From assembly GCA_022340305.1 (NCBI GenBank), contig JAJDOF010000069.1:26277-90276 (forward strand): a DNA stretch of 64,000 bases, read 5' to 3'. This DNA comes from Gammaproteobacteria bacterium. Its GTDB lineage: Bacteria > Pseudomonadota > Gammaproteobacteria > GCA-001735895. The notes under the pieces are model-generated. The model had not been told where the DNA came from. It saw only the letters and a list, made by a program, of their open reading frames with translations, and ran no database searches. This document shows positions 1-45,856 of this stretch, one piece after another (position 1 is the stretch's first letter; every line of letters starts with the position of its first letter). The position numbers and the translations under genes are program-made.

Positions 1-274
1 GCGCGGTTGCGAGCGCAGTCCGCCAGTTGGAGCGGTACTCATTATTAAGGTGGCGCAAGGTCTGCTCGAGCAGCGCCTCCTTGCTGTGGAAATGAAAAAC
101 AACGTTACCCTGTGAAATTCCAGCGCGCTCGGCGATGCGCGCCAGCGTGGTCTGCGACAAGCCAAGCCTGTCGATGCAATCCATGGTCGCCTCGATTAAC
201 TGGTGCTTGCGAAACTCGCTCTGATGCTTGCGATTGCGGCTCGCGAAATTCTTTGTAGTCACCTGAATGGACAC
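1..274 (-). CDS. TetR/AcrR-family transcriptional regulator, N-terminal HTH part (C-terminus lies beyond the window start)
   Basis: Minus-strand translation V(S)IQVTTKNFASRNRKHQSEFRKHQLIEATMDCIDRLGLSQTTLARIAERAGISQGNVVFHFHSKEALLEQTL shows the TetR helix-turn-helix signature. Possible GTG starts at 274 or 262, with AGGAA upstream. Not in the ORF track because it runs off the edge. Confidence 0.7.
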   Translation of the reverse strand, partial: MSIQVTTKNFASRNRKHQSEFRKHQLIEATMDCIDRLGLSQTTLARIAERAGISQGNVVFHFHSKEALLEQTLRHLNNEYRSNWRTALATA

Positions 275-430
275 GCTATTCCTGTTTCCGTCGGTCGGCG
301 GATACTATTAAATACTGAGCATATAGTCAATAGAAAGCCCTATATCATTGAAATACATTGCAAAAAAGGTAACAATAAATATAATAGCCAGACCTTTTAG
401 AAGTCTATGCCCTTATTCAGGAGAGTCAGC

Positions 431-1837
431 ATGAGCACCTCGGCGGAACTTAAGCAGCGCGATAACCAGTTTATTCACCCCTGGGATGACATCGTCAAAC
501 TAGGCGGTAACCAACGTACTTTATTGGACCGGGGGGAGGGCGTGTATGTTTATGACAGCGAAGGAAACCGTCTGCTCGATGCGCCCGCGGGCATGTGGTG
601 CGTCAATATCGGCCACGGTCGCAAAGAGATGGCGCAGGCTGTGTACGACCAGATCATGGCGTTAACCTATGTTTCGCCGTGGTCGATGACCACCGGGCCG
701 GCAGCACAGTTTGCCGCCGATCTTGCCGAGCTTTCACCGGGCGACCTGAATCATGTGTTCTTCACCACCGGGGGCTCGACCGCGGTTGATTCGGCGCTGC
801 GCTTCGTGCAGTTCTACAACAATATGCGCGGCAAGCGCGCCAAGAAACACATTATTGCGCAAAAGCGCGGTTATCACGGCAGCACCTTTCTGAGCGGTAC
901 GGTTTCGGGGAAAGAGCGTGACAAGAGCAATCTGGATGTTGTTGAAGGCCTGGTGCACCACATCGAAGCACCGGACCTGCTGCAAAAGCCTGCAGGGCAG
1001 TCTGAAGCCGAGTTTCTTGATGCCTGCATCGCCAGCCTTGAAAGCATGATTGCTGAAGTCGGCGCCGATAAATGTGCCGTGTTCGTCGCCGAGCCGATTC
1101 TTGCCTCGGGCGGGGTTATCGTGCCACCCGAGGGTTATCATCAACGATGCCTCGAGGTCTGCCGCAAGCACGACATGTTGTACCTGTCAGACGAAGTGGT
1201 TACCGCTTTCGGACGATTGGGGCATTGCTTTGCTTCCGAGGACGTTTTCGGGATTGTGCCGGACATCATTACCACGGCGAAAGGTCTGACCTCGGGTTAT
1301 ATCCCCATGGGCGCTTTCCTGGTATCAGATCGTCTCATCCAGGAAATCAAGGATCGCGGCGGAGATTCGGCGGTCTTTGCCAATGGCTTTACCTATTCCG
1401 GTCATCCGGTAGCGGCGGCTGCCGGCATCAAGAACCTGGAGATCATGCAGCGTGAAAAACTGTTCGAGCAAGTCCGGGATACCGGACCCTATATGCAGCA
1501 GCAGTTGCAGACCCTGCGCGACATTCCGATCGTCACTGATGTGCGCGGCCTCGGCCTGATGGCCTGTGTCGAGTGCGAGCTGGAAGAGGGCAGCCGCGAT
1601 CTGGATACGGATCTCGCGCTCGGCAGCCGCATCGACCGCCATTGCCAGGCGATGGGGCTGATCGTGCGGCCGCTGATCAACATGTGTGTGATGTCACCGC
1701 CGTTGACGATCACCAGGCAGCAAATCGATGAAATGGTGGCTATTTTGCGCAAGGGCATTTTGCTCGCAATGCAGGATATCGAAAATGAAAAGGCAGGGAC
1801 CAGGAGCGATCATCGCCATCCCTCTCCGGCAGCCTGA
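431..1837 (+). CDS. Class-III (omega-) aminotransferase, PLP-dependent (SpuC / beta-alanine-pyruvate aminotransferase-like)
   Basis: 469-aa ORF. AGGAG sits 6 nt before ATG 431, so the internal start is preferred over 407. Motifs of aminotransferase class III are present: GMWCVNIGHGR..., DEVVTAFGRLG, TTAKGLTSGYIPMG. Confidence 0.85.
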   Translation: MSTSAELKQRDNQFIHPWDDIVKLGGNQRTLLDRGEGVYVYDSEGNRLLDAPAGMWCVNIGHGRKEMAQAVYDQIMALTYVSPWSMTTGPAAQFAADLAELSPGDLNHVFFTTGGSTAVDSALRFVQFYNNMRGKRAKKHIIAQKRGYHGSTFLSGTVSGKERDKSNLDVVEGLVHHIEAPDLLQKPAGQSEAEFLDACIASLESMIAEVGADKCAVFVAEPILASGGVIVPPEGYHQRCLEVCRKHDMLYLSDEVVTAFGRLGHCFASEDVFGIVPDIITTAKGLTSGYIPMGAFLVSDRLIQEIKDRGGDSAVFANGFTYSGHPVAAAAGIKNLEIMQREKLFEQVRDTGPYMQQQLQTLRDIPIVTDVRGLGLMACVECELEEGSRDLDTDLALGSRIDRHCQAMGLIVRPLINMCVMSPPLTITRQQIDEMVAILRKGILLAMQDIENEKAGTRSDHRHPSPAA

Positions 1838-1889
1838 TCCCGCGTTAGCGGGTAATATTTTCTAATCTAATTTAAGCAAGGTAGTAGTA

Positions 1890-3104
1890 ATGAAAGTTGT
1901 ACCAGCAGAAAAAGTGTTTCGTGATCCGGCTGCCCGCCGCGGCTTGCCGGCCTGGACATATAACAATGCGGAATTGACGCAGCTCGAAATGGAAGAGGTG
2001 TTTTTGCGCAACTGGCTGTTCGTCGCGCACGTGTCCGACCTTCCGCGGGCGGGCGATTATAAATGCTTCGACTTCGCCAACGAACGCGCCGTGGTGGTGC
2101 GTGATCAGCAAAAACAGATTCGAGCTTTCCATAACGTCTGCCGTCACCGCGCATCGCGCGTGGTCGCCGATGATAAAGGCCACTGTGGTAATTCGTTTAT
2201 CTGTCCATTCCATGGCTGGTCCTACAATCTGGACGGCTCGCTGAAAAATATTCCCAAGGCCAGTTCGTTTCCGGATATCGATAAATCGCAATTCGGACTC
2301 CAGCCGCTCGATTGCGATGTCTGGCAGGGTATGATCTTCATCCGTTTCGGTGGTGAAGGCCCGTCGATAGCCGAACAGTTTGCCGATGCGGCGGCGGAAA
2401 TCGGCCTGTATCGTATCGAAGAGATGGAGCCACTCGACGATCCATACCAGTATAAATTCAACCTCGACTGGAAGGCGGTGCTCGACATCGACAACGAGGG
2501 TTACCACGTACCCATCGGCCATCCCGAGTTGTTCGACCTGGTTGGCGCAAGCTATACCGACCAGCCGTTGGCGGGAGGGCTGACACGCGCCTGTGGCAGT
2601 TTCAGGGAGCGCAAGCTCAAGCTAGAGCGCAACCGCGATTACGTAGAGGCATTACCCGATAAAAGTTATCTGCCCGAGTCGCACCAGCACCTGTGGATTT
2701 ACTGGGGCATGTTCCCCGGTTTCGTGCTGACGCTGTTTCCCGACCAGATCGAAATTTACCAGATCTATCCGACTGGCTACCAGAAAAGCGTGATGGCTGG
2801 CGTTACCTATGCCCTGCCAGACAAGCGCGCCAGTATGCAACGCGCACGCGCATTGAACCGCGACATCAACATGGACGTCGGTGACGAAGACATCAACCTG
2901 ATTCGCTGGGCGGCCGAGGGCATGCGTTCCAGTGCATTCGACGGAGTGCTGCTGTCAGACCTGGAGCTAGGTGTCGCTGCGTTTCAAAACAGGCTGCGCG
3001 AGTTGCTGCCGGTAGCCAGCCTCGACGAAGTGCCGGAAGAGGGCAGCCTGAAAGATACCAACGAGCGAATGTTGAAGATGGGAAAAGTAACCGCGGTAGG
3101 CTGA
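1890..3104 (+). CDS. Rieske [2Fe-2S] non-haem-iron oxygenase alpha subunit (GbcA/CntA/Stc2-like N-demethylase-type)
   Basis: Rieske motif CRH-x16-CPFH is present (CRHRASRVVADDKGHCGNSFICPFHGWSY). Mononuclear Fe site NEGYHVPIGHPE. 404 aa with a 4-nt gap to the next gene. Confidence 0.85.
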   Translation: MKVVPAEKVFRDPAARRGLPAWTYNNAELTQLEMEEVFLRNWLFVAHVSDLPRAGDYKCFDFANERAVVVRDQQKQIRAFHNVCRHRASRVVADDKGHCGNSFICPFHGWSYNLDGSLKNIPKASSFPDIDKSQFGLQPLDCDVWQGMIFIRFGGEGPSIAEQFADAAAEIGLYRIEEMEPLDDPYQYKFNLDWKAVLDIDNEGYHVPIGHPELFDLVGASYTDQPLAGGLTRACGSFRERKLKLERNRDYVEALPDKSYLPESHQHLWIYWGMFPGFVLTLFPDQIEIYQIYPTGYQKSVMAGVTYALPDKRASMQRARALNRDINMDVGDEDINLIRWAAEGMRSSAFDGVLLSDLELGVAAFQNRLRELLPVASLDEVPEEGSLKDTNERMLKMGKVTAVG

Positions 3105-3107
3105 TTC

Positions 3108-5147
3108 ATGCCGCGAGACTCGCGCTACGATCCGCTGTTCGAGCCCATTCAGCTGGGCCCCGTTACTGCGCCCAACCGTTTTTACCAGGTACCGCATTGC
3201 AGCGGTATGGGCTACCAGCGTCCGCAAATGATGGCGGCAATGCGTGGTGTCAAGGCCGAAGGTGGCTGGGGCGTCGTGTGCACCGAATATTGTTCGATAC
3301 ACGCAAGCTCTGACGACTCTCCCTATCAGAGCGCCAGCCTGCGCGATGCGGACGACATAAGCAACCTGCGCCTGATGACTGACGCGGTACATGCCGAAGG
3401 TGCGCTGGCGGGTGTCGAACTATGGTATGGCGGGTTTACTACCCCGAATCTTTACAGTCGCGAAGTCTCCATGGATGTAGCCAGTCTGGCGAACGAGTCG
3501 ACACAGGGTGTGCCGGTACAAAGCCAGGCGATGACGCTGGACGATATACAGGCATTTCGGCAGATGCATCGCGATGCAGCAAAGCGGGCGCTCGATGCGG
3601 GTTTTGATATCGTTTATGTTTATGGCAATCATGGCTATCTGCTGCACAACTTCCTTAATCCCTATTTCAATCAGCGTGACGATGAATACGGCGGCGTAGC
3701 CGAAAATCGGGTACGACTGCTGCGGGAAGTGATCGAGGACGTTAGCGAAATTGTCTCTGGGCGTGCTGCAGTTGCAGTACGCTATTCGATCCCGCCGCAA
3801 TTCGATATCGATCCCCAGGGATTGATCGAATGTTTTGGATACCTTGCTGAACTGCCCGATCTGTGGGATATCACGGTTAACGATTATCATCTGGAGATGG
3901 GTAGCTCGCGTTTCATCAAGGAAGCGGCAAACCAGGAAGCAATCGCAGGCCTCAGGGCTTTGACCGGCAAACCAATAGTCAGTGTCGGCCGCTTTACCTC
4001 ACCCGATACCATGTTGAGCCAGATCGTCAGTGGCACGCAGGACATGATCGGTGCCGCGCGGCCCTCTATCGCAGATCCATTTCTTCCGCGCAAAATCGAG
4101 CAGGGTCGGCTTGAGGATATCCGCGAATGCATTGGTTGCAACGTTTGCTATGCCCATAATTCACTGGGTGTACCGATTCGCTGCACGCAGAATCCGACCA
4201 TGGGCGAAGAATGGCGACGTGGCTGGCATCCGGAGCGCACTGAGGCACGTCATGCTGATCAGTCGGTGCTGGTGGTGGGTTCCGGACCGGCAGGACTGGA
4301 AGCTGCCTGTGCGCTGGGTCAGCGCGGCTATCGGGTAATCCTGGCCGAGGCCGAGCAGGAACTCGGTGGACGCATCAATCGGGAGTCGCGCCTGCCGGGA
4401 CTGGCCGAATACGCGCGAGTTCGCGACTGGCGCCTGGGGCAATTGCAACGCATGGTCAATGTCGACATCTACCCCGATAACCGGCTCGATGTCGACGCGA
4501 TCGCCGAGCTTGCATGCGAGCACGTCATAATTGCGACCGGGGCCAGCTGGCGCAGCGATGGGGTCGGACGTTGGCGTAATTCGGCCTTCGCTGGTTGTGA
4601 CAGTGACCAGGTGATTGGTGTCGAGCAAATTTTGCGCGGGAAATTACCCGAGGGCAGGGTGGTGATCTATGACGACGATCACTATTATCTCGGCAGTGCA
4701 ATCGCCTTGCTCGCCAGTGCCAGTGGCTGCCAGGTTGCATTGGTGTCGCCTTCAGATTCCCTGGCTGAATGGAGTCATAATACCGAGGAGCATCGTCCCG
4801 TAATGCGGGCATTGATCGAAGCCGGTGTGGAGTTTGTGACTGCCAAAGGGCTGGTTGGTTTCGACCTGGGAAAGGTTCAACTCGAATGCGTTTACAGTGG
4901 TCAGTCGTCGCAACTGGCGGCCGATCAATTGATTCCGATCAGCTCTCGTGTCGCCGATGACGCGTTGTGGATTGCACTCGATCAGCATCGTAGCGAGCTT
5001 CTGCAACACGGGCTTGTGTCGCTTCAGCGTATTGGTGATTGTCGCGCGCCCGGTATTATTGCCGCAGCGGTGTATGCGGGGCATAAGGCCGCGCGTGAGT
5101 TGGGTAGTCGGCAGTCTGAAGTCAAACGTGATCGCGTATTAACATAA
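3108..5147 (+). CDS. Trimethylamine/dimethylamine/histamine-dehydrogenase-family Fe-S flavoprotein (FMN + 4Fe-4S + ADP-binding domain), paralog 1
   Basis: The N-terminus MPRDSRYDPLFEPIQLGPVTAPNRFYQVPHC resembles the TMADH N-terminus, including the Cys used for 6-S-cysteinyl-FMN. A 4Fe-4S motif CIGCNVC...C and a Rossmann motif VVGSGPAGLEAA are present. 679 aa. Confidence 0.85.
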   Translation: MPRDSRYDPLFEPIQLGPVTAPNRFYQVPHCSGMGYQRPQMMAAMRGVKAEGGWGVVCTEYCSIHASSDDSPYQSASLRDADDISNLRLMTDAVHAEGALAGVELWYGGFTTPNLYSREVSMDVASLANESTQGVPVQSQAMTLDDIQAFRQMHRDAAKRALDAGFDIVYVYGNHGYLLHNFLNPYFNQRDDEYGGVAENRVRLLREVIEDVSEIVSGRAAVAVRYSIPPQFDIDPQGLIECFGYLAELPDLWDITVNDYHLEMGSSRFIKEAANQEAIAGLRALTGKPIVSVGRFTSPDTMLSQIVSGTQDMIGAARPSIADPFLPRKIEQGRLEDIRECIGCNVCYAHNSLGVPIRCTQNPTMGEEWRRGWHPERTEARHADQSVLVVGSGPAGLEAACALGQRGYRVILAEAEQELGGRINRESRLPGLAEYARVRDWRLGQLQRMVNVDIYPDNRLDVDAIAELACEHVIIATGASWRSDGVGRWRNSAFAGCDSDQVIGVEQILRGKLPEGRVVIYDDDHYYLGSAIALLASASGCQVALVSPSDSLAEWSHNTEEHRPVMRALIEAGVEFVTAKGLVGFDLGKVQLECVYSGQSSQLAADQLIPISSRVADDALWIALDQHRSELLQHGLVSLQRIGDCRAPGIIAAAVYAGHKAARELGSRQSEVKRDRVLT

Positions 5148-5172
5148 AAAGATTAAGGTATAAGAGTAAGTA

Positions 5173-7227
5173 ATGGCCAGAGATCCAAAGTACGACATCC
5201 TCTTCGAGCCGGTGCAAATCGGCCCGGTCACTGCCCCTAACCGGTTTTTTCAGGTCCCTCACTGCAATTCGCTGGGCCATGGTCGGCCTCGCGCCGAGGC
5301 GGCTAACCGCGCGATCAAGGCCGAGGGAGGCTGGGGTGTCATTTGTACGCAAGAGGTTGAGATTCATCCCAGTTCCGAGGCATCACCCTTTATCGAGGGG
5401 CGTCTCTGGGATGACCGCGACATACCGCAACACCGCCTGATGACCGATGCGGTGCATGAGTATGGTGCGCTTGCGGGCATCGAATTGTGTTACCCCGCGA
5501 TCCACGCAGTCAACTTGTACAGCCGTATCGCACCCATGGCGCCGAGCGCCGGGGTTGCGCACGGCAGTTACCCGACCCATGCGCGCGCGATGAGCAAGCG
5601 AGACATCGCTGACCTGCGTCGTTGGCACGTCGACGCGGCCAGGCGCTCCCGGCAGGCGGGATACGATATCGTCTATCTTTATGCCGGGCACGATATGAGC
5701 CTGTTACAACACTTTTTCAAGAAGCAATATAATCGGCGTAGCGATGAGTACGGCGGTAGCCTTGAAAACAGGGTCAGACTCACAAGGGAGATTATCACCG
5801 ATGTTAAAGAGGCAGTTGGTGATACCTGTGCGATTGCATTTCGCTTTGCGACCGACGAGTTGCTGGGTGCTGACGGGCTGCGATGGGAGAGTGAGGGGAG
5901 GGACATAGTCGGAATGCTCGCCGAGCTTCCGGACCTGTGGGATGTCAACATCAGTGGCTGGGGTAACGATTCTTCGACCGCACGCTTTGAACCCAATGAA
6001 GGCTACCAGGAAGAATACACCGCATTCGTCAAGACCCTGACCAGCAAGCCGGTGGTGGGTGTCGGGCGTTTTACCTCGGCCGATACCATGGTATCTCAAA
6101 TCAAGCGAGGTGTGCTCGACCTGATCGGCGCGGCGCGGCCATCGATAGCTGATCCCTTCCTGCCGCGCAAGATCGATGAAGGCCGTATCGAAGACATACG
6201 CGAATGCATTGGCTGCAACATCTGCGTCGCCCAGGACATGATGGCGGCGCCGATTCGCTGCACGCAAAACCCGACCCAGGGGGAAGAGTGGAAGCAGGGC
6301 TGGCACCCGGAGAAGATTGCAGCGGCGGCCAGCGACGATGCAGTGTTGGTGGTCGGCGCCGGACCTGCCGGGCTTGAGTGCGCGCTGCAACTCGCCAATC
6401 GTGGTTACCAGGTGACCCTTGCCGAGGCGTCGCAGTCCCTCGGTGGGCGAATAAATCGTGAAAGCGAGCTGCCCGGTATGTCGAGCTATACCCGGGTGCG
6501 TGACTATCGTGAATTCCAGCTCAGCCAGAAGGCTAATGTCGATATTTATCTCGAGAATCGATTGACCGCGGAGGATGTGATTGCACTGGAGATTCCACAT
6601 GTACTGGTCGCTACCGGATCGCACTGGCGTAATGACGGCTGTGGTCGCACTCATGCCTTTCCGATCGCCGGTATCGACAGTGTTCGGGCGCTGACTCCGG
6701 ACGATATTTTGGCCGGCGCAGACATCAGCGGACGAGTACTCATCTACGACGACGATCATTATTTCATGGGCAGTACCCTGGCTGAACGCTTACGCGCACA
6801 AGGGCATGAGGTTTGCCTGCTGACCCCGGAGTCGGTGGTTGCAGAATGGACAAAAAACACACTGGAGCAGTCGAAAATCCAGGCGCGCCTACTCGAGCTT
6901 GATGTCGACATCGTGACTTCGCATGCTATATGCGAAGTCCGCCCTGGCGAAGCAACAATCGCAAACGTCTACAGTGACAGGCTGCGGCGTGTGCTTGAAT
7001 TCGATACGCTGCTGATGGTCACCTCACGTGACCCTGACGATAATTTGTTCCAGTCACTTCAGGCTTATCAGGATAGCTTGCAAACACTGCGTGCAATCGG
7101 CGATTGCAATGCCCCCGGCACCGTGGCCGCGGCGGTCTATGACGGGCACTCGGCAGCGCGAGACCTGGAGTCACAACAGGATGTCTACGCACCCCTGTTC
7201 GTACGTGAAATACCAGCGCTGGATTAG
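5173..7227 (+). CDS. Trimethylamine-dehydrogenase-family Fe-S flavoprotein, paralog 2 (tandem duplicate)
   Basis: MARDPKYDILFEPVQIGPVTAPNRFFQVPHC, CIGCNICVAQ...C, VVGAGPAGLECA. 684 aa, roughly 50 % identical to the upstream paralog by eye. Confidence 0.85.
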   Translation: MARDPKYDILFEPVQIGPVTAPNRFFQVPHCNSLGHGRPRAEAANRAIKAEGGWGVICTQEVEIHPSSEASPFIEGRLWDDRDIPQHRLMTDAVHEYGALAGIELCYPAIHAVNLYSRIAPMAPSAGVAHGSYPTHARAMSKRDIADLRRWHVDAARRSRQAGYDIVYLYAGHDMSLLQHFFKKQYNRRSDEYGGSLENRVRLTREIITDVKEAVGDTCAIAFRFATDELLGADGLRWESEGRDIVGMLAELPDLWDVNISGWGNDSSTARFEPNEGYQEEYTAFVKTLTSKPVVGVGRFTSADTMVSQIKRGVLDLIGAARPSIADPFLPRKIDEGRIEDIRECIGCNICVAQDMMAAPIRCTQNPTQGEEWKQGWHPEKIAAAASDDAVLVVGAGPAGLECALQLANRGYQVTLAEASQSLGGRINRESELPGMSSYTRVRDYREFQLSQKANVDIYLENRLTAEDVIALEIPHVLVATGSHWRNDGCGRTHAFPIAGIDSVRALTPDDILAGADISGRVLIYDDDHYFMGSTLAERLRAQGHEVCLLTPESVVAEWTKNTLEQSKIQARLLELDVDIVTSHAICEVRPGEATIANVYSDRLRRVLEFDTLLMVTSRDPDDNLFQSLQAYQDSLQTLRAIGDCNAPGTVAAAVYDGHSAARDLESQQDVYAPLFVREIPALD

Positions 7228-7251
7228 CGTCATCAAGCTCGGGTTGCGGCT

Positions 7252-8172
7252 TCAGGAACCCTTGTTGGCGCCGAGTACATAGAGCATTTCCAGCGCCAGG
7301 GTGGCGCCAGCTAGTGAGGTGATTTCGGCGTGATCATAGGCAGGCGCGACCTCGACCAGGTCCATGCCAACCAGGTTGATGCCCTGTAATCCACGGATGA
7401 TCTTGAGCGCGCGGTCCGATGTCAAACCGCCGATAACGGGGGTGCCCGTGCCGGGAGCATAGCTTGGGTCGAGGCAGTCTATGTCAAAGGTCAGGTAACA
7501 GGGCGTGTCACCAACGCGCTGATGGATGCGCTCGACAATCGCTTCGGCGCTCAGGTCGTTGGCGACGGCGGCGCTGATCACCTCGAACTCGTGCCGGCTC
7601 TCGGTGTATTCGGTGCGTATCCCGATCTGAATGCTCTTGTCCGCGTCGATCAGGCCTTCGCGCGGTGCGTGATAAAACATGCTGCCATGGTTGTAAACGG
7701 CATCTTCCTCGTTATAGGTGTCGGTGTGTGCGTCGAAGTGAATCATCGCCAGTTTGCCGAAATGCGCGTGGTGTGCACGCAGCAATGGCAGTGTAACGAA
7801 GTGGTCGCCACCCAGGCTGAGGGTGGTTTTGCCGGCGGCGAAAAGCCTGGCGTATTGTTCCGCAACGCTTTCAAAAAAGGCCTCGTGGTTGCCGGTGGGG
7901 ACCTCGATATCGCCGTAATCGGCTACACGGATGCGTTCAAACACGTTGAAATCCCAGGGCCAGCGCTTTTCTTCCCAGCGCAGATTGGCGCTGGCGCTGC
8001 GTATGCCATCGGGGCCGCCGCGGGTGCCCGCGCGCCCACTGGTGCCGAGGTCGTAAGGCAGGCCGATGACAAATACGTCGGCGTCGTCGGGGTTGCGGCT
8101 TAATGGTCGGCCCATAAAGCTGAAGCGGTTGGCGTAGATGGAGACACTGTCGATAAAATTGTCGTTAGTCAT
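7252..8172 (-). CDS. Agmatinase/arginase-family ureohydrolase (guanidino-acid or guanidino-amine hydrolase, GbuA/SpeB-like)
   Basis: Mn-binding motifs of the ureohydrolase fold are present: GGDHFVTLPLL, HFDAHTDTY, DIDCLDP. The start was moved to ATG 8172 (MTNDNFIDS...), which overlaps the upstream stop as TAATG. The track's longer start at 8247 overlaps the preceding gene by 76 nt. Confidence 0.8.
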   Translation of the reverse strand: MTNDNFIDSVSIYANRFSFMGRPLSRNPDDADVFVIGLPYDLGTSGRAGTRGGPDGIRSASANLRWEEKRWPWDFNVFERIRVADYGDIEVPTGNHEAFFESVAEQYARLFAAGKTTLSLGGDHFVTLPLLRAHHAHFGKLAMIHFDAHTDTYNEEDAVYNHGSMFYHAPREGLIDADKSIQIGIRTEYTESRHEFEVISAAVANDLSAEAIVERIHQRVGDTPCYLTFDIDCLDPSYAPGTGTPVIGGLTSDRALKIIRGLQGINLVGMDLVEVAPAYDHAEITSLAGATLALEMLYVLGANKGS

Positions 8173-9614
8173 TAAAGATACCAGTCGTATTCGCGCGCGT
8201 TGATGTGATTTTCGAAAGCGGTCGTTTCTGCCGCGCGATGGCGACAATATAACTCGATGAATTCGCGGCCCATGATGTCACTCAGTTCCACGCTGTCGAG
8301 CGTGCGCGCAAGCGCCGTGCGCATGTCCAGTGGCAGGCTTTCGTCACGCCCGACGACGGCCTGATCGGTGGCCTCACCCGGATCAAGCTTGTTCTGGATG
8401 CCGTGCAGCATTCCGGCCAGGGTGACGGCCATCGCCAGGTAAGGATTCGCATCCGCACCGGGAACACGATTTTCCACGCGCCATGCGCCCTCTTTGGCGT
8501 GGGGAATGCGAAACGCCACGGTTCGATTTTCATTTCCCCAGGTCAGGCTTACCGGCGCACAGCTGGTGCCACCCCGGTAGCGCCGGTAGGAATTGATATT
8601 GGGAGCCCAGAATGACATCGCCGCGGGCATGGTCGCAAGCAGGCCACCGATGGCGTGGTACAGCCGCGCATGCCCTTTGCGGGGACCTGCAAAAATATTC
8701 TTGCCCTGGTCGTCGACCACGCTGATGTGCATGTGCAGTCCATTGCCGGCGAATGCGAGCAACGGCTTGGCGATGAAACTGGCGCCCATGCCGTGCTTCT
8801 TGGCGATTTCGACGACGATGCGCTTGAACAGGCAGGTTTCATCTGCGGCTCTAAGCACATCGGCATGGTGATTGAAATTGATCTCGAACTGGCCCGGCCC
8901 GAGTTCCGCTGAAATCGCGCCGGTGTCGATATTTTGCATTTCGCAGGCGTGAATAATGTCGTCGATGACTGTCTCAAAATCACCGATGCGCGCGCTCGAT
9001 AACACCGTTGCGGTATCCTTGCGGCCGGTTTTGGGATTGCGCACGATTTGTAACAGGTCATCCGCATCGCGCTGGGCCGCGAACAGGTAGAACTCGAGCT
9101 CGAAGGCGACCATGGGGCGCCAGTGCCTGGCTGCGTAGGCATCCACTACTTTCTGTAATACATAGCGCGGTTCGAACCAGCTTGGTTGGTCGCCATCACA
9201 GGTTGTCGCGACCACCTGGGCGCGGGCCTCGCGGCCCCAGTCGTTCAGACAAAGGCTGCCGGGTACCAGGTAGAAATGTGCATCCGGATCACCATCGTCG
9301 ATTCCATAGTAAAGGCCATCGAGCGGTTCGCCGAGCGTACTGAGCGTAAACATGCTCGCCGGCATCGCGAGTCCTTCTGCCGCGAAGCTTGCCAGTTTGT
9401 CGATGGGGTAGCGCTTGCCGAAGTAATGCCCACAGATATCCGTGACTAAAACCTCGAATTGCGTGAGATCCGGATAGGCTTTCAGAAACTGGTTGACTTC
9501 GCGTTTGAGACGCTGGCTTTGCTGAGCTTTCATAAACTTCGGGCTACTCTGGTCATCGATAGTTTTGTGATCACGGGCGCAGGCATTTTCGAGGCCGTTG
9601 ACCTGGGTTGTCAA
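8172..9614 (-). CDS. Glutamine-synthetase-family gamma-glutamyl-amine ligase (PuuA/PauA-like)
   Basis: 480-aa GS-like catalytic domain (…FELEFYLF…, …GLHMHISV…, NPYLAMAV). Translationally coupled to the ureohydrolase. Confidence 0.8.
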   Translation of the reverse strand: MTTQVNGLENACARDHKTIDDQSSPKFMKAQQSQRLKREVNQFLKAYPDLTQFEVLVTDICGHYFGKRYPIDKLASFAAEGLAMPASMFTLSTLGEPLDGLYYGIDDGDPDAHFYLVPGSLCLNDWGREARAQVVATTCDGDQPSWFEPRYVLQKVVDAYAARHWRPMVAFELEFYLFAAQRDADDLLQIVRNPKTGRKDTATVLSSARIGDFETVIDDIIHACEMQNIDTGAISAELGPGQFEINFNHHADVLRAADETCLFKRIVVEIAKKHGMGASFIAKPLLAFAGNGLHMHISVVDDQGKNIFAGPRKGHARLYHAIGGLLATMPAAMSFWAPNINSYRRYRGGTSCAPVSLTWGNENRTVAFRIPHAKEGAWRVENRVPGADANPYLAMAVTLAGMLHGIQNKLDPGEATDQAVVGRDESLPLDMRTALARTLDSVELSDIMGREFIELYCRHRAAETTAFENHINAREYDWYL

Positions 9615-9661
9615 TGTTTCTCAAGCAGAAAAAGTGATCACAACACGGGTGAAATCACTGT

Positions 9662-10372
9662 TCAAGCGACGCCTCTGAAATAATTGTCAATGCCCTCGAC
9701 ACTGTTTATCGAGGCGATGCCATCACGAATATCGGCTTCAATGGCACGCCGCAGACCGAACAGGTTACGCTGGCGCAAAGCCTCCAGCGCTTCGACGTGG
9801 CGGTCGACCAGGTAAACTTTTTCCAGTTTGCTAATGGCAATGCGAGAAAACGGCCCGAGCTGCAACCACAGGCTTTCGATCAGGGGTACCGATATCTGGA
9901 AAGGATTCACCTGGTATAAACAGCGATGGAAGGCCTGGTTGTGCAGGCTGATGTGATCCACGTCATCGGCTTCGATGGCCTGATCAATTGCGCCATCGAT
10001 TACCTCCAGAACCTCAATATCTGCTTCTTTTATATAGGGTAATGCACCCTCCGCGGCATGGGTTTCGAGAAGAATTCGCAAGTCGCAGAGTTCTCTGAAC
10101 TTCTCTGGAGTCATCGACGGCACGATCACCCTGCGATTGTTCTTGACCTCGACCGCACCCTCGCAGGCAAGCCGGTGCAGCGCCTCGCGCACTGGCATGG
10201 GACTGACATCGAGAATTTGTGCAAGCCCGCGTATGGTCAGCGCAATGCCCGGCGCGATGCGCCCGCACAACAGGTTGTTGCGCAGCAACTGGTAGACCCA
10301 TTGATGCGTTTTCAGGTCGTCCGACTTTTCGATCATTAGCAGTTTTATGGGTTGTGCGTCGGCAGAGGACAT
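9662..10372 (-). CDS. GntR-family (FadR/FCD subfamily) transcriptional regulator
   Basis: N-terminal winged HTH (IAPGIALTIRGLAQILDVSPMPVREALHRLACEGAV) plus an FCD-type C-terminal domain. Divergent from the amidotransferase gene. Confidence 0.8.
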   Translation of the reverse strand: MSSADAQPIKLLMIEKSDDLKTHQWVYQLLRNNLLCGRIAPGIALTIRGLAQILDVSPMPVREALHRLACEGAVEVKNNRRVIVPSMTPEKFRELCDLRILLETHAAEGALPYIKEADIEVLEVIDGAIDQAIEADDVDHISLHNQAFHRCLYQVNPFQISVPLIESLWLQLGPFSRIAISKLEKVYLVDRHVEALEALRQRNLFGLRRAIEADIRDGIASINSVEGIDNYFRGVA

Positions 10373-10562
10373 AGATTGGTTTTGAGCAGCGGTCAGGCGA
10401 TGATTTAATCACAAATGCGCAATTTTCACCAATGGCAAGGTTGCTAAGGCCGAGGATATGTCTATAAAATATGATCACATTACATGCGATCTGGAAGTCG
10501 GTCGCGATTCCTCAAAACTACGCGGCGATTGTCTCGCAATGCGAGCAGATCAGGGTGTGCAG
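10373..10562. promoter_or_regulatory. Divergent promoter/operator region between the GntR regulator and the amidotransferase gene
   Basis: 190-bp AT-rich spacer with the near-palindromic segment ATGTCTATAAAATATGATCACAT, of the kind GntR-family operators show. Confidence 0.3.
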
Positions 10563-11318
10563 ATGAAAATCGGAATTCTCGAAACCGGATTGGTACGCGA
10601 AGAACTGGCGGATCGACACGATCCCTATCCCGTGATGTTCGAGCGACTGCTGGGACTTGCGGAGCGCAAGCTTGAGTTTGCGACCTTTAGTGTGCTGCGC
10701 GGGGAGATGCCGGAGTCGATAGACGATTGTGACGGATGGTTGATTACCGGATCGCGATACGGTGTCTATGAAAAGCTCGACTGGATGCTGGTGTTACAGG
10801 ACTTTATCCGCGAGCTGGCAGCTGCCGGGCGGCCGTTGATCGGAGTCTGCTTTGGTCACCAGATTATCGCCGAGGCGTTGGGTGGGAAGGTCGTCAAGTC
10901 GGAGCTTGGCTGGAAGGTCGGGGTGCAACGCTATGATCTCGAGCGTCGCTATGACTGGATGGGCGAATCACCATCATCGGTCGCGATGCATGCCTATCAT
11001 CAGGATCAGATCGTGGAATGCCCGCCAGAGGCCGAAGTTTTTTTGAGTTCTGCCGATTGTCCGCTTGCTGGATTGAGTTATGGTGATTCGATTATCAGTG
11101 TGCAGGCGCACCCGGAAATCGAGGAATCCTATGAACGTGATCTGCTGGAATTGTTCGCCGGCCGCTCGCTTCCGCTGGATCTGGCGCAGCAGGGGATTGC
11201 ATCCCTGGATGCCGGCATACCGGTTGATACCCGGCTAGTTGCGAACTGGTTTGTCGAGTTTTTTCTGACTCGCGAAATGACGGCGCAAGCGGCGCCCCTG
11301 GAGCAGTCACAGGCCTGA
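10563..11318 (+). CDS. Class-I glutamine amidotransferase-like hydrolase (PauD/IpuF-type gamma-glutamyl-amide hydrolase candidate)
   Basis: Start MKIGILETG… with catalytic GVCFGHQ (Cys) and a His/Glu triad region. Start placed at ATG 10563 rather than the track's 10458. Confidence 0.7.
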   Translation: MKIGILETGLVREELADRHDPYPVMFERLLGLAERKLEFATFSVLRGEMPESIDDCDGWLITGSRYGVYEKLDWMLVLQDFIRELAAAGRPLIGVCFGHQIIAEALGGKVVKSELGWKVGVQRYDLERRYDWMGESPSSVAMHAYHQDQIVECPPEAEVFLSSADCPLAGLSYGDSIISVQAHPEIEESYERDLLELFAGRSLPLDLAQQGIASLDAGIPVDTRLVANWFVEFFLTREMTAQAAPLEQSQA

Positions 11319-22271: not shown

Positions 22272-25001
22272 GTGCTGTCGCGCCTTTACAGCTTCAAGAT
22301 CATCATCGGCGCTGCGCTGCTGTGGCTGGGTATGCTGGCCTACGGACTCGCAATCTACAGCACCCAGGTCTATCGTGATCACGCCATCCAGGTTCAGCTC
22401 GAAACCTTGCAGGTCCAGCTTGAACAGGAAAGCAATGAAGCCATTCAGGAGCTCTATGACAGGGTGAAGCTGTTTGCGCTGAGGCTACAGACGGAGACCC
22501 CTTTCGCGCAGGCTCTCGCCAGTCGCGACCAGGCCGCGATGGAAGCCTGGCTTGCGAAGAGCTATACGCGCTACCAGATGTCGCGAGAGCTTTTCAAGCT
22601 GGAGGCGATCGTCGTACGCGATTTGGCAGGTGATATATTTGCACAAAGCTCGGCCGATGGTATCAACAGCTATGCTGGCTGCGCCGTAGTGCTGGATTCC
22701 CTGGGTGGAACGCTGATTCGATTGCTAAAGCCGAGATATGCCCTGTGCACCTTTGATAATCGTCTGTTTGCCGAAGTACTGGTCCCGGTGGGGACCCTCG
22801 AACCTCGGGCTTATCTGCATATTATCGCTGATGCTGGTGACGGGATCAGGCGTATTGAGTCAAAAATCGGCATGCCGGTTCGGGTGGCGCACGGCTCAGG
22901 CGAAATCCTCTATCGATCAGAGCATTGGGGTGATGCCGATAATGAGTCTTATTTGTATCCGAGCTTCAAGCTCTACGGTGACGATGCCTTCATCGGTGCT
23001 ATCGTCTCCGCCGCCTTCGACCAACGACCACTCATTGAGCGGCTGCAGCGGACCAAAACCGGATTCCTGATGATCACCACCCTGGCGACGATTATCGCTC
23101 TGGTGCTGGTATTGTCCATGTTGCATCGCGCCCTTCAGCCGATGAATAAACTACGCAATTCGGTGGGCGCACTTCTGACCGGGAAATATGCTCCGATCAG
23201 TGAAGATAAACTCCCCAGTGAATTGCGCGACCTGGTGATAGCCTACAACCAGATGGTCGAAGGCCTGGAAATCGAGACCATCAGTCGACACAACATCGAG
23301 GAGCGTTTGCGCGCGGAAAAGGATTTCATTTCGACCACGCTGGATTCGATCAGCAACCCGGTTATCGTCATCGATTCAATGGACCGCATCAAGCTCGTCA
23401 ACCCGGGAGGCGAAATATTGTTTGGCGACAAGCAGGAAGCGCTACTCGGCTCCTCCATTCATGAATTTTTAATTCTCTACTCGAATCGCCAGGCTACGCG
23501 CATCGTCGATATCAAGCAGCTTCTCACGCACAAACTGTCGATGTCCTCGATGTATTTTTATGATGCCAATCATAAGCTTATCGAACTCGAATTTTCGGCT
23601 TCGCCGATGATCGATGTAGTGGCCGAGGACATCGGCTTTGTCATTATCCTGAAAGATGTGTCCGAAGATCGCAAGCTGCGTCGCAAACTGAGCTACGAGG
23701 GTAGTCACGATCAACTCACCGGATTCCTGAATCGTGCCGCGTTTGAGCAGAAGTTCGACAATCTGGTGACTGAGGATAATGGAGCGCTGCCGCAGCACGT
23801 GTTGGCCTACCTTGATATCGATCAGTTTCGCACTGTTAACGAAACCTGTGGCAGCGCTGCCGGCGATCTGCTGCTGAAGCAGATCAGTTCGATCATCAAG
23901 AAACAGATGCGCCAGGCGGACGTGTTATCGCGCCTGAGCGGTGACGAGTTTGGCTTCATCATGCCTTTCTTCGAGATGGACCGAGCCCTGCAGACCATAC
24001 AGAAAATTATCATCGAGATTCAGCATTCGACTTTTGTGTGGAATGCCCAGGAATATCGAGTGACTGTCAGCATCGGTGTGATGGCCTTCGGGCGCATGAG
24101 TGATGAATATGCCGACCACTATTCCAAGGTGACTACGGCCTGTTTCCTGGCCAAGCAAAATGGTGGTAATCAATACCACTATATTGATGAGAACGACGAA
24201 AAAGTCCTGGCCCAGCAAGTGTCCATGGAGTGGGTGTCCGGTATTATGGAAGGTTTTACCAATGATCGATTTTGCCTCTACGTACAACCCATCGTAGGTA
24301 TCGACCATGCCGACAAGCATGACCATTACGAAGTGCTGATCCGCTATCGCGATCAAGATGGTAACATCATCGCGCCTGGTCAATTTCTACCCTCCGCTGA
24401 GCGCTACAACCTGATCGAGCGAATCGACTGCTGGGTCGTCAGCACGATCATTGAATGGTTTCAGAAAAATCCCACGATGGACCAGAAGGTCATGTTCTCG
24501 ATCAATCTTTCGGGGCGCAGCATCAGTTCGCAAACCTTCCATAGCTTTTTGCGCGAGACGCTCATCGCCAGCAATGTCGACATGCGCGCGCTGTGTTTTG
24601 AAATTACTGAAACCGCGGTTGTCGATAATGTCGAACGTTCGGTCGAGTTCATCAATTCGATCAAGCAACTGGGCGTGCGCTTTTCGCTCGATGATTTTGG
24701 CACCGGACTCTCTTCATTCAGTTATCTCAAGCAGTTTCCGGTCGATTATCTGAAGATCGATGGCGAGTTTGTGCGCGACATTACCAAAGACGACAAGAGC
24801 TTTGTCTTCGTGCGCTCGATGACTGAAGTCGGGCATTGCCTGGACATGGAGGTGATCGCCGAGTTCGTCGAATCAGATACCATGTTCGACAAGTTGCGCG
24901 AGGCCAACGTGGATTTCGCACAGGGTTATACGGTTGGCAGACCGGTACCGATCGATACGCTGCTTGAGGTTGACCGGGCAAAACACAAGCAGACTGGCTA
25001 G
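22272..25001 (+). CDS. Membrane sensor diguanylate cyclase/phosphodiesterase (periplasmic sensor-HAMP-PAS-GGDEF-EAL)
   Basis: Two TM helices flank a periplasmic domain of about 250 aa. A PAS domain is followed by GGDEF as RLSGDEFG, an SGDEF variant with no RxxD I-site. An EAL domain follows (EVLIRY…, DDFGTG). Confidence 0.85.
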   Translation: MLSRLYSFKIIIGAALLWLGMLAYGLAIYSTQVYRDHAIQVQLETLQVQLEQESNEAIQELYDRVKLFALRLQTETPFAQALASRDQAAMEAWLAKSYTRYQMSRELFKLEAIVVRDLAGDIFAQSSADGINSYAGCAVVLDSLGGTLIRLLKPRYALCTFDNRLFAEVLVPVGTLEPRAYLHIIADAGDGIRRIESKIGMPVRVAHGSGEILYRSEHWGDADNESYLYPSFKLYGDDAFIGAIVSAAFDQRPLIERLQRTKTGFLMITTLATIIALVLVLSMLHRALQPMNKLRNSVGALLTGKYAPISEDKLPSELRDLVIAYNQMVEGLEIETISRHNIEERLRAEKDFISTTLDSISNPVIVIDSMDRIKLVNPGGEILFGDKQEALLGSSIHEFLILYSNRQATRIVDIKQLLTHKLSMSSMYFYDANHKLIELEFSASPMIDVVAEDIGFVIILKDVSEDRKLRRKLSYEGSHDQLTGFLNRAAFEQKFDNLVTEDNGALPQHVLAYLDIDQFRTVNETCGSAAGDLLLKQISSIIKKQMRQADVLSRLSGDEFGFIMPFFEMDRALQTIQKIIIEIQHSTFVWNAQEYRVTVSIGVMAFGRMSDEYADHYSKVTTACFLAKQNGGNQYHYIDENDEKVLAQQVSMEWVSGIMEGFTNDRFCLYVQPIVGIDHADKHDHYEVLIRYRDQDGNIIAPGQFLPSAERYNLIERIDCWVVSTIIEWFQKNPTMDQKVMFSINLSGRSISSQTFHSFLRETLIASNVDMRALCFEITETAVVDNVERSVEFINSIKQLGVRFSLDDFGTGLSSFSYLKQFPVDYLKIDGEFVRDITKDDKSFVFVRSMTEVGHCLDMEVIAEFVESDTMFDKLREANVDFAQGYTVGRPVPIDTLLEVDRAKHKQTG

Positions 25002-34431: not shown

Positions 34432-35466
34432 ATGGACATAGCTCAACTCCTGGCATTTGGCGTCAAACAGGGCGCCTCTGATTTACATTTGTCTGCTGGC
34501 TTGCCGCCCATGATTCGCGTCGACGGCGATATTCGCCGTATCAATGTGCCAGAAATGGAGCACAAACAGGTACACGACATGATTTATGACATCATGAGTG
34601 ACAAGCAGCGCAAAGATTACGAGGAGTTCATGGAGACCGACTTTTCATTCGAAATTCCTGGCCTGGCGCGCTTTCGCGTCAACGCATTTAACCACAATCG
34701 TGGCGCGGGCGGGGTTTTCCGCACAATTCCATCGAAGATACTGAGTCTGGAGGATTTGGGTGCACCCAAGATTTTTCAGGATATTTCCGAGTATCCGCGC
34801 GGCATAGTGCTGGTGACCGGCCCTACCGGCTCCGGCAAGTCGACCACGTTGGCGGCGATGGTGGACTACAAGAACGACACCGAGTATGGCCATATCCTGA
34901 CCGTCGAGGATCCAATCGAATTTGTGCACGAAAGCAAGAAGTGCCTGGTCAACCAGCGCGAAGTGCATCGCGATACCCTGGGATTTAATGAAGCACTGCG
35001 CTCGGCGCTGCGGGAAGACCCCGATACCATCCTGGTTGGTGAAATGCGAGACCTGGAAACCATTCGCCTCGCCTTGTCGGCCGCAGAAACCGGACACCTG
35101 GTGTTCGGTACCTTGCACACCAGTTCGGCGGCCAAGACCATCGACCGAATCGTCGATGTGTTTCCTGCCGCAGAAAAATCAATGGTGCGCTCCATGCTGT
35201 CGGAATCGCTGAAAGCGGTTATTTCACAGACCCTGATGAAGAAAATCGGTGGCGGGCGCGTTGCCGCGCACGAGATCATGATTGGTACGCCCGCCATCCG
35301 CAACCTGATTCGTGAAGACAAGATTGCGCAGATGTACTCCGCGATCCAGACTGGTCAGAATGTCGGCATGCAGACTCTGGACCAGAACCTGAAAACCTTA
35401 CTGGGCCAGGGGATTGTTTCCAAGGATGAGGCCATGCGCAAGGCCGCTAGTCCGGATTCATTGTAA
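34432..35466 (+). CDS. pilT: Type IV pilus retraction ATPase PilT
   Basis: MDIAQLLAFGVKQGASDLHLSAG… GPTGSGKST Walker A and AIRNLIRE motif. Confidence 0.9.
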   Translation: MDIAQLLAFGVKQGASDLHLSAGLPPMIRVDGDIRRINVPEMEHKQVHDMIYDIMSDKQRKDYEEFMETDFSFEIPGLARFRVNAFNHNRGAGGVFRTIPSKILSLEDLGAPKIFQDISEYPRGIVLVTGPTGSGKSTTLAAMVDYKNDTEYGHILTVEDPIEFVHESKKCLVNQREVHRDTLGFNEALRSALREDPDTILVGEMRDLETIRLALSAAETGHLVFGTLHTSSAAKTIDRIVDVFPAAEKSMVRSMLSESLKAVISQTLMKKIGGGRVAAHEIMIGTPAIRNLIREDKIAQMYSAIQTGQNVGMQTLDQNLKTLLGQGIVSKDEAMRKAASPDSL

Positions 35467-35493
35467 TCAGGCGCGGTACCAGGGGGACACTAA

Positions 35494-36663: not shown

Positions 36664-36679
36664 TGTACGGGATAAACAT

Positions 36680-45472: not shown

Positions 45473-45856
45473 ATGACGCATATTCTGATTATTGACGATT
45501 CACCTACCGAGGTACACGTTTTCAGAAATATGCTGATGAATCACGATATCGAGGTTTCGGTCGCTATCAATGGCGAGGAAGGCATCGAGAAGGCGATCGC
45601 GATAAAACCCGATTGCATCTTGATGGACGTAGTCATGCCCGGCAAGAATGGATTTCAGGCAACCCGCGACCTCAGCCGAAACCCGGCGACCTCGGCTATT
45701 CCGGTGATCATTATTACTACCAAGGATCAGGAAACGGACAAGATATGGGGAATGCGCCAGGGCGCGAGGGACTACATCGTCAAGCCTGCTGTTGAACGTG
45801 ATTTGATCGAGCGCATCAACAAAGTGCTCGGTGTTGGCCGCGATTACGAGGCATAG
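45473..45856 (+). CDS. pilH: Response regulator PilH (CheY-like)
   Basis: MTHILIIDDSPTEVH… single REC domain of 127 aa after pilG. Confidence 0.85.
   Translation: MTHILIIDDSPTEVHVFRNMLMNHDIEVSVAINGEEGIEKAIAIKPDCILMDVVMPGKNGFQATRDLSRNPATSAIPVIIITTKDQETDKIWGMRQGARDYIVKPAVERDLIERINKVLGVGRDYEA

Follow-up and report, generated by a model that had tools for sequence, protein, structure and literature searches.

The left end of a 64,000-nt stretch of DNA from an uncultured marine gammaproteobacterium (contig JAJDOF010000069.1; the whole stretch is called the window below) carries the genes of an aminotransferase, a Rieske oxygenase, two flavoproteins resembling TMADH, a ureohydrolase, a GS-like ligase and a GATase-fold hydrolase. 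The question raised by this locus is whether these genes serve a single route, as originally predicted, or more than one. We analysed the first 11 kb of the window together with related loci and contigs from metagenomes and genomes (numbered L001 onwards). With about even confidence, we regard positions 1–11318 as the right-hand part of a 16-gene polyamine/agmatine-utilisation island of approximately 19.5 kb. In our estimate the chances are also evenly balanced that this island combines an ordinary gamma-glutamylation route with a conserved, uncharacterised cassette, composed of an aminotransferase (AT1), the Rieske oxygenase and two flavoproteins of the TMADH/histamine-dehydrogenase family (HADH_A and HADH_B).

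The genes of this region were confirmed by listing of open reading frames (ORFs) and by Pfam/NCBIfam scans, and all those named in the original prediction are present where it had placed them. Its order, with the GATase followed by the regulators, had to be revised: the genes run ureohydrolase <- GS1 <- GntR, and the GATase gene is divergent from that of GntR. The features are as follows.

1–274, minus strand: TetR-family regulator (BetI-like, TetR_C_6), N-terminal part, cut by the window edge (full gene, L001 7729–8385)
314–331, plus strand: candidate TetR operator, ACTGAGCATATAGTCAAT, between the TetR start and the AT1 promoter
358–385, plus strand: sigma-70-like promoter, TTGCAA-16-TATAAT (10/12 consensus match), for the AT1-Rieske-dehydrogenase operon
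431–1837, plus strand: AT1, class-III omega-aminotransferase (PRK07036 orthogroup)
1890–3104, plus strand: Rieske non-heme-iron oxygenase, alpha subunit (Pfam Rieske and Ring_hydroxyl_A)
3108–5147, plus strand: HADH_A, TMADH/histamine-dehydrogenase-family Fe-S flavoprotein, 679 aa (FMN/Fe-S/ADP)
5173–7227, plus strand: HADH_B, TMADH/histamine-dehydrogenase-family Fe-S flavoprotein, 684 aa (FMN/Fe-S/ADP)
7252–8172, minus strand: predicted SpeB-type agmatinase, the ureohydrolase (Pfam Arginase, 1e-89)
8172–9533 (ORF to 9614), minus strand: GS1, GS-like, putative gamma-glutamyl-amine ligase (Pfam Gln-synt_C, 2e-90)
9566–9575, no strand: palindrome TGTGATCACg, proximal copy upstream of GS1, kept in L014, L015, L022, L023 and L028
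9633–9642, no strand: palindrome aGTGATCACA, distal copy between the GntR stop and GS1
9662–10372, minus strand: GntR-family regulator with an FCD domain, FadR subfamily (Pfam GntR, 3.7e-15; FCD, 2.5e-12)
10470–10479, no strand: palindrome TaTGATCACA upstream of the GATase start, with exact copies at the same place in L015, L023, L028 and L030
10539–11318 (ORF from 10458), plus strand: predicted class-I GATase-fold gamma-glutamyl hydrolase, GGP1-like; this 259-aa start is also called in L001 and L002

Eight further genes were found to the left of position 1 in metagenome contigs encoding identical proteins (L001–L006) and in a 93%-identical relative (L092). This part of the island (approximately 8 kb) holds the rest of the TetR gene and the genes of a potFGHI-type ABC transporter, a second GS-like ligase (GS2), a SpuC-like PRK07480 aminotransferase (AT2) and, directly after AT2, a 436-aa DAO-family FAD oxidase, which matches PuuB/PauB at the family level only. 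The original prediction had reported no PauB-type FAD oxidase and had suggested that the TMADH paralogs take its place; this apparent absence was an artefact of the window edge, and with the oxidase gene lying just upstream of position 1 there is no reason left to recruit the paralogs for that step. Beyond the oxidase side, ycgL and the genes of the ammonium transporter (amtB) and the P-II protein (glnK) directly flank the island (L092 14161–16114, left border); the presence of amtB and glnK as direct neighbours fits a nitrogen-scavenging role. To the right of position 11318 lie fadE, fadD (acyl-CoA ligase), tmcA and other core genes, and for this reason the end of the island was placed at 11318.

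Homologues of the Rieske protein were surveyed using one genome per species, which yielded 80 loci. A tblastn synteny map revealed an identical gene order in about 25 gammaproteobacterial loci (including that of the Olavius algarvensis Gamma3 symbiont), with Rieske identities of 58–89%. An arrangement that recurs in this number of loci as the identity drops from 89% to 58% exceeds what would be expected by chance. Marine and sediment metagenomes contained more than 100 distinct 90%-identity clusters with at least 70% identity to the Rieske protein. The public names of the island proteins are generic, e.g. 'aromatic ring-hydroxylating dioxygenase' or 'FAD-dependent oxidoreductase', and a literature search (Rieske, polyamine, histamine dehydrogenase, Olavius, Njordibacter) found no description of the cluster. 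The cassette is widely conserved and is explained by no curated family or publication that we found; in this respect the original statement that the block matches no described route still stands.

Co-conservation of the whole block in related genomes was observed in the approximately 25 gammaproteobacterial loci, but two other groups carry the cassette without the ureohydrolase/GS/GATase module. In Candidatus Njordibacter (a cultured, Arctic bacterium) we detected the transporter, TetR, AT1, Rieske and dehydrogenase genes, together with those of a DAO-family protein and a cupin; the immediate neighbourhood of the cassette lacks ureohydrolase, GS-like, GntR and GATase genes. One of these loci (L031 1045–3512) carries, beside the transporter, a ChrR-type cupin gene and a third, B-like dehydrogenase gene (pocket residues E, E, E, W, D). 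The second group comprises the alphaproteobacteria Shinella, Rhizobium sp. SL42, Parasedimentitalea and Fuscovulum, with Rieske orthologs 38–44% identical to the window protein, an adjoining aminotransferase and a Pot-type ABC transporter; in three of the four clusters a TetR gene lies inside the cluster. The Shinella cluster, the only one scanned protein by protein, encodes an aminotransferase of the PRK07036 orthogroup and a BetI-like TetR. These clusters add two CrtI-like FAD oxidoreductases, in place of or besides the TMADH-like gene, and a GcvT/Tdm-like aminomethyltransferase, which is matched best by the model of the folate domain of TMAO demethylase; this combination suggests removal of N-methyl groups in those alphaproteobacteria. 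In the Fuscovulum cluster there is also a cupin annotated as 'DMSP lyase family' (L090 19183–20034).

The division of the island into two units is most visible in its regulatory regions. Operators were sought by eye in the intergenic regions and by cross-locus alignment (an inverted-repeat search of the intergenic regions, with a seed of 6, found nothing), and two distinct footprints emerged. The palindrome TGTGATCACA (T-GTGATCAC-A) is located upstream of the transporter, GS2, GS1 and GATase genes and is conserved in about 20 loci. The 8-mer GTGATCAC occurs four times in the 21-kb contig L001 (0.35 copies expected), a number reached in none of 100 shuffles. Over loci L001–L038, with the duplicate contigs L002–L006 excluded, 51 of the 56 copies map to, or next to, the regulatory regions of the binding-protein, GS2, GS1 and GATase/DAO genes; among these 51, three fall within the long GS1 ORF yet precede the start preferred for that gene, and one is just beyond the DAO gene. 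The palindrome is found about 140–335 nt (mostly 170–220 nt) upstream of the binding-protein gene and, in most loci, about 90–100 nt upstream of GS2; one or two copies precede GS1, and a further copy lies between the GntR and GATase genes. Only three sites in the window have at most one mismatch to the 10-mer (9566, 9633 and 10470), all of them before GS1 or GATase. The GS1 start at 9533 was preferred to the TTG at 9614, because both operator copies are then upstream of the gene. A third exact copy of GTGATCAC in the window, inside a PAS-GGDEF-EAL gene (22375–22382; gene, 22272–25001), is probably due to chance, a 64-kb sequence being expected to contain roughly one. The Njordibacter loci have no GntR gene beside the cassette, and their cassette intergenic regions contain no copy of the palindrome. 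A GT-N4-AC palindrome is the form expected of the operators of FadR-type GntR regulators.

The spacer between the TetR gene and AT1 lacks TGTGATCACA and carries its own conserved element, ACTGAG-N6-GTCAAT, whose sole exact copy in the window is that at 314–331. The block A.TGAGT...T.GTCAA is conserved in 25 orthologous TetR-AT1 intergenic regions, and in the Njordibacter loci the element is a perfect palindrome (ACTGAG-N6-CTCAGT). No second copy was found before the transporter or GS genes at up to two mismatches beyond chance expectation. Beside this element lies the AT1 promoter, both hexamers of which (TTGCAA/TATAAT) are conserved in the alignment of these intergenic regions. As there are two distinct footprints, the island would contain two regulons. 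One probably comprises the transporter, GS1-SpeB, GS2-AT2-DAO and GATase genes under GntR, with TGTGATCACA as the predicted operator; the other would comprise AT1, Rieske, HADH_A and HADH_B under TetR, with ACTGAGCATATAGTCAAT as the candidate operator. The three enzyme modules recognised in the original prediction are real, but the two footprints, and the occurrence of the cassette without the ureohydrolase, GS and GATase genes, argue against their being one pathway unit.

The enzymes of the first unit are of familiar kinds. The ureohydrolase scored 272.8 bits with TIGR01230 (cutoff 174.3) and 433 bits with PRK02190, carries the manganese-ligand motifs GGDH, HFDAHTD and DIDCLDP, and is nearest to E. 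coli SpeB (7LOL, the best solved structure; 374 bits). Guanidinobutyrase and guanidinopropionase were considered and rejected on their scores (213 bits to GbuA and 196 bits to GpuA, versus 374). By every sequence test applied it is an ordinary SpeB-type agmatinase, with agmatinase activity predicted, which makes the special methylated guanidino substrate that had been proposed for it unnecessary. Its start overlaps the GS1 stop (TAATG), and the translational coupling noted earlier was thus seen again. GS1 is 37–41% identical to PuuA and Burkholderia homologs. The GATase-fold protein retains the nucleophile motif GVC131FGH and an HPE motif. It matches Pfam GATase (PF00117, 1.4e-16) far better than Peptidase_C26 (PF07722, only 3e-4), and its nearest solved structure is the plant gamma-glutamyl peptidase GGP1 (9k7i); on this evidence the assignment to PuuD/PauD was rejected. 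The binding protein of the transporter scored 297 bits to the polyamine transport protein 3ttl (Pseudomonas-type) and 285–287 bits to PotF, and retains the PotF ligand residues W37, Y40, S85, S87, W244, D247, D278 and Y314, the substitutions D39E, E185D and F276W being conservative; these residues point to a ligand of the polyamine type.

Taken together, these genes resemble the Puu system of E. coli and the Pau-Spu system of Pseudomonas aeruginosa in their GS-like ligases, DAO oxidase, SpuC-like PRK07480 aminotransferase AT2, PotF/SpuE-like binding protein, SpeB and GATase-fold hydrolase. In contrast to those systems, the hydrolase is GGP1-like (PF00117) rather than Peptidase_C26 as in PuuD/PauD, no PuuC/PauC aldehyde dehydrogenase is encoded in the island, the probable regulator is of the GntR/FCD type instead of PuuR, and the GS-like ligase is encoded twice; the two paralogs share only 36% identity and fall far below the cutoff of the NCBIfam gamma-glutamylputrescine synthetase model NF045547 (174 bits for GS1 and 173 for GS2, versus 650). 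The first unit thus appears to be a Puu/Pau-type route with an agmatinase feeder, i.e. a known kind of pathway of unusual make-up (GGP1-like hydrolase, two ligases, no aldehyde dehydrogenase, GntR control). Four relatives carry, divergent from GS2 and with GTGATCAC in between, a gene of about 306 codons for a guanidino-modifying protein of the DDAH/arginine-deiminase superfamily (L013 2471–3436, L015 2436–3380, L030 846–1790 and L035 2030–2962); in these relatives the GntR-type regulon may also process methylated or other guanidino compounds. In L030 a 396-aa protein with a C-terminal PqqD domain is encoded between the DDAH-like gene and the transporter (2334–3524).

The second unit opens with AT1, whose start at 431 is preceded by an AGGAGA site and agrees with metagenome gene calls. 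AT1 matches Pfam Aminotran_3 (1.3e-82) and NCBIfam NF005447 (674 bits, cutoff 618); its nearest solved structure is 3i5t, followed by putrescine/polyamine:pyruvate transaminases. The gap between AT1 and the Rieske gene contains a short GC-rich hairpin followed by a T-rich stretch (1839–1852), a possible attenuator that would raise AT1 expression above that of the oxygenase and dehydrogenase genes. The divergent TetR regulator scored about 121 bits with the NCBIfam BetI models (PRK00767, cutoff 118; TIGR03384, cutoff 201).

The Rieske protein carries the motifs C84-x-H86...C105-x2-H108 and E203-x2-H206-x4-H211 (E203-G-Y-H206). Its bridging residue is Glu, aligned with the NRECYH...H of Stc2 (3vca) and with 3n0q (HcaE has Asp); the likeness to Stc2 claimed originally is therefore borne out, and the sequence groups the protein with the Glu-bridged quaternary-amine oxygenases. 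With the GbcA equivalog model NF058607 it scored 140 bits over residues 16–217 only, below the membership cutoff of 670. The three nucleotides between the Rieske stop and the start of the following dehydrogenase gene are found both in the window, where HADH_A follows, and in L011–L013, where HADH_B follows: this tight junction is kept whichever paralog comes next. HADH_A is absent from L007, L009, L011–L014, L016, L029 and L035, in which HADH_B adjoins the Rieske gene. The island encodes no beta subunit for the oxygenase, and no adjoining reductase of the GbcB, CntB or Stc3 type was found among its 16 genes or in the four annotated alphaproteobacterial clusters.

HADH_A and HADH_B are 50% identical and form two orthogroups with distinct conserved pockets. 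Both align over their full length (residues ~3–680, three-domain architecture) with solved members of the family, the scores being 693 and 760 bits, respectively, to the histamine dehydrogenase of N. simplex (3k30), and 518 and 573 bits to TMADH (1djn). The cysteine of 6-S-cysteinyl-FMN is Cys31 in both (TMADH Cys30, histamine dehydrogenase Cys35) and is present in 16/16 A-type and 17/17 B-type orthologs; a distant third copy in L075 (27–29% identical) lacks it. The 4Fe-4S ligands, in the motif C-x2-C-x2-C-x11-12-C (C341, C344, C347 and C359 in HADH_A; C345, C348, C351 and C363 in HADH_B) align with C345, C348, C351 and C364 of TMADH. Judged by these residues, both flavoproteins are genuine members of the TMADH/histamine-dehydrogenase family.

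Their pockets differ from each other and from those of the characterised enzymes. In HADH_A the pocket residues Y61, S75 (Ser or His in the orthogroup), Y177, Y260 and E263 are conserved across 16 sequences and retain the equivalents of TMADH Tyr60, Ser74 and Tyr174, i.e. a TMADH-like aromatic pocket. In HADH_B the residues E61, E75, H111, W263, D266 and D355, conserved in 17 orthologs, retain the equivalents of Glu79, Trp267, Asp270 and Asp358 of histamine dehydrogenase and add one extra Glu, giving an acidic pocket. The original description of TMADH-like paralogs is borne out by the pocket residues of HADH_A; the pocket of HADH_B is of the histamine-dehydrogenase type. The complete TMADH bowl (Tyr60/Trp264/Trp355) is found in neither protein: HADH_A has Tyr61, Tyr260 and no Trp at 355, and HADH_B has Glu61, Trp263 and Asp355. 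The site proposed for histamine (Gln65, Ile74, Phe77, Glu79, Asn115, Tyr181, Trp267 and Asp358; PMC10180351) is matched at four of its eight positions in HADH_B (E61, A70, F73, E75, H111, M175, W263, D355) and at one of eight in HADH_A (Y61, D70, Y73, S75, T111, Y177, Y260, N351). Histamine dehydrogenases also oxidise agmatine, putrescine and 1,3-diaminopropane (PMC10180351).

From the gene identities, cofactor motifs, synteny and operator footprints we infer the substrates, the order of steps and the regulators of the following scheme, a two-unit reading of polyamine nitrogen scavenging that claims about half of our confidence as a whole. In the first unit, the PotF-like ABC transporter would import polyamines of the agmatine or putrescine type, SpeB would split agmatine into putrescine and urea, and GS1 and GS2 would gamma-glutamylate the amine with ATP; the PauB/PuuB-type FAD oxidase, encoded like AT2 upstream of the window, would oxidise the free end, and the GGP1-like GATase would take off the glutamyl group. 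The second unit would take polyamine-like amines that lie beyond the gamma-glutamyl route, namely those in which a nitrogen is secondary, tertiary or quaternary (N-methylated or N-aminoalkylated). Its Rieske oxygenase, which is Stc2/GbcA/CntA-like, would hydroxylate the carbon adjoining the nitrogen, so that the C-N bond falls apart; HADH_A, with its aromatic pocket, would strip a further N-alkyl group; HADH_B, with its tri-acidic pocket, would oxidise a primary amine of the dicationic product (of the putrescine, agmatine or 1,3-diaminopropane type); and AT1 would transaminate the other amino end, the products entering the putrescine pool handled by the first unit. Oxidative N-dealkylation and deamination of N-substituted polyamines is our best inference for the cassette. 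Four observations underlie it: the families of the enzymes together with their pockets, a transporter of the polyamine type, the folate-demethylase context in alphaproteobacteria and the location of the cassette within an island of polyamine genes. A Rieske-type putrescine 2-hydroxylase of Bordetella and Ralstonia, a biosynthetic enzyme, has reportedly been described by Li et al. in 2016 and would be a precedent for a Rieske enzyme acting on an aliphatic diamine; our Rieske homology search gave no match to a Ralstonia megaplasmid at E<=1e-30.

Several observations weigh against this scheme. The pathway as drawn is incomplete, as the 16 island genes, from amtB/glnK to fadE, include neither a ferredoxin/FNR-type reductase for the Rieske enzyme nor an aldehyde dehydrogenase; a Rieske reductase, ETF or aldehyde dehydrogenase was not found elsewhere in the window either (ORFs of at least 180 aa were scanned, except for 48542–55330, 59250–59816 and 63336–63983). 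A fixed three-step dealkylation cannot be universal, because HADH_A is missing from many relatives. The binding protein keeps both acidic clusters by which PotF holds primary amines; a quaternary amine would fit them less well than would plain putrescine, agmatine or spermidine, and plain polyamines are a possible substrate of the cassette. An AlphaFold2 model of the Rieske protein, built from a 10-sequence alignment, was unusable (mean pLDDT 33). Finally, the assignment of the palindrome to GntR and of the other element to TetR draws on co-occurrence and family precedent only.

A bolder version of the scheme dispenses with the reductase. The AT1-Rieske-HADH genes would then form a self-contained redox module that cleaves N-alkylated polyamines (e.g. 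N-methylated or long-chain ones, from diatom detritus or a host), with the dehydrogenases directly reducing the Rieske enzyme via their 4Fe-4S clusters, without an NAD(P)H reductase, so that oxidation of one amine pays for the oxygenation of another. TMADH-family dehydrogenases release electrons singly through the 4Fe-4S cluster, and direct supply of this kind would fit the lack of a reductase gene in the island and in the four alphaproteobacterial clusters, as well as the 3-nt Rieske-dehydrogenase junction. We nevertheless regard this proposal as decidedly doubtful.

One alternative explanation of the locus starts from its likeness to betaine catabolism. The oxygenase and flavoproteins could carry out serial demethylation of an omega-trimethylammonio compound (beta-alanine betaine, gamma-butyrobetaine or an analogue), with the Rieske enzyme, HADH_A and HADH_B removing one methyl group each and AT1 transaminating the resulting omega-amino acid; the polyamine genes would then be neighbours in a shared nitrogen-scavenging context only. 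This proposal, which we consider unlikely, draws on the nearness of the Glu-bridged Rieske protein to Stc2, GbcA and CntA, on the BetI-like TetR, on the Tdm/GcvT-like folate domain protein of the alphaproteobacterial clusters, on the replacement of PotF D39 and E185 by Gly and Trp in some alphaproteobacterial binding proteins, and on the match of the four enzymes to the logic of Stc2/Stc4 and GbcA/DgcA. The island indeed shares with the stachydrine (Stc2/Stc3/Stc4) and glycine betaine (GbcAB/DgcAB) systems an alpha-only, Glu-bridged Rieske gene followed by TMADH-family flavoprotein genes, and a BetI-like TetR. It differs from them in having no Stc3/GbcB-type reductase gene, an omega-aminotransferase gene in the operon, and a Rieske catalytic domain that, past residue ~220, aligns with no solved or curated member (Stc2, GbcA and CntA included). 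Moreover, the three acidic residues of the HADH_B pocket would repel a carboxylate, the transporter is of the polyamine type (both PotF acidic clusters are kept in the gammaproteobacterial binding protein, and no ProX/OpuAC- or BCCT-type betaine transporter is present), and the operator in its promoter is also that of the Pau-type genes. A further candidate substrate is histamine, or a different biogenic monoamine, with HADH_A, HADH_B and AT1 producing an aldehyde and the Rieske enzyme attacking the ring. Among solved structures, both paralogs are closest to histamine dehydrogenases (those of Nocardioides simplex and Rhizobium sp. 4-9 are 49–52% identical over the full length, with all cofactor residues shared), and HADH_B keeps Glu79, Trp267 and Asp358; however, it has Glu for Gln65, His for Asn115 and Met (or Leu) for Tyr181, and most site residues differ in HADH_A, which has Tyr61, Ser75, Tyr260 and Glu263. 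The Rieske protein, moreover, groups with aliphatic quaternary-amine oxygenases and not with arene dioxygenases, and has no beta subunit; there is no aldehyde dehydrogenase and none of the 16 genes was identified as an imidazole-acetate catabolic enzyme, the binding protein and flanking genes being of the polyamine and not the histidine/imidazole type. We therefore hold a histamine route to be very unlikely.

The two remaining alternatives concern the unity of the island and take opposite views of it. According to the original prediction, a single linear pathway degrades a methylated guanidino-amine (methylated agmatine or homoagmatine), the Rieske and TMADH-like enzymes demethylating it, the ureohydrolase freeing urea and the GS and GATase proteins processing the diamine. 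Such a pathway would account for the adjacency and co-conservation of the three modules within one gammaproteobacterial clade, for the TMADH-like residues of HADH_A and for the DDAH/ADI-superfamily gene beside the same palindrome in the four relatives named above, but it is hard to reconcile with two operator footprints, a cassette that lacks the ureohydrolase, GS and GATase genes in Njordibacter and alphaproteobacteria, a ureohydrolase that passes the agmatinase equivalog cutoff and is nearest to E. coli SpeB, and a PauB-type oxidase upstream; it seems to us quite improbable. At the other extreme, the adjacency of the modules might be meaningless, unrelated amine genes having piled up at one chromosomal site. 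The absence of the ureohydrolase/GS/GATase module beside the cassette in some lineages and the variable presence of HADH_A could be read in this way. This is, in our judgement, extremely unlikely, given a gene order kept in about 25 loci down to 58% Rieske identity, an operator shared by genes on both sides of the cassette, and the 3-nt spacer kept with either paralog. In aniline dioxygenase-type systems, too, one locus combines genes of three kinds, for a GS-like ligase, for a GATase-fold protein of class I and for a Rieske oxygenase. Unlike in those systems, the Rieske gene of the island would belong to a regulon other than that of the GS and GATase genes, occurs without them, and has neither a beta subunit nor a reductase gene.

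A few further observations concern the block as a whole and the remainder of the window. A megablast comparison of the block with plasmids returned only a 72-bp Ralstonia match inside HADH_A and was uninformative. Three tandem genes for T2SSE-family ATPases (PilT/PilU-like) lie at 34432–37843 beside proC, yggS and yggT, and at 45831–55330 a CheW gene, an MCP gene and a 2262-aa ORF stand in a row, in an arrangement resembling a Chp/Pil-type chemosensory cluster.

Polyamines rank among the major sources of labile nitrogen in the sea, and we know of no recognised bacterial route for them (gamma-glutamylation, transamination or spermidine dehydrogenase) that includes a Rieske oxygenase or TMADH-family dehydrogenases. 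Metagenomes from marine and sediment samples contain the cassette in abundance, and it is present in the symbiont of a gutless worm, in the cultured Arctic Njordibacter and, as a counterpart, in alphaproteobacteria. The predicted operators make the regulon directly testable. Once the substrate is identified, a further route for the catabolism of N-substituted polyamines, or of a related class of amines, would become known, and a function could be given to proteins that are at present annotated only as an 'aromatic ring-hydroxylating dioxygenase' or an 'FAD-dependent oxidoreductase'.

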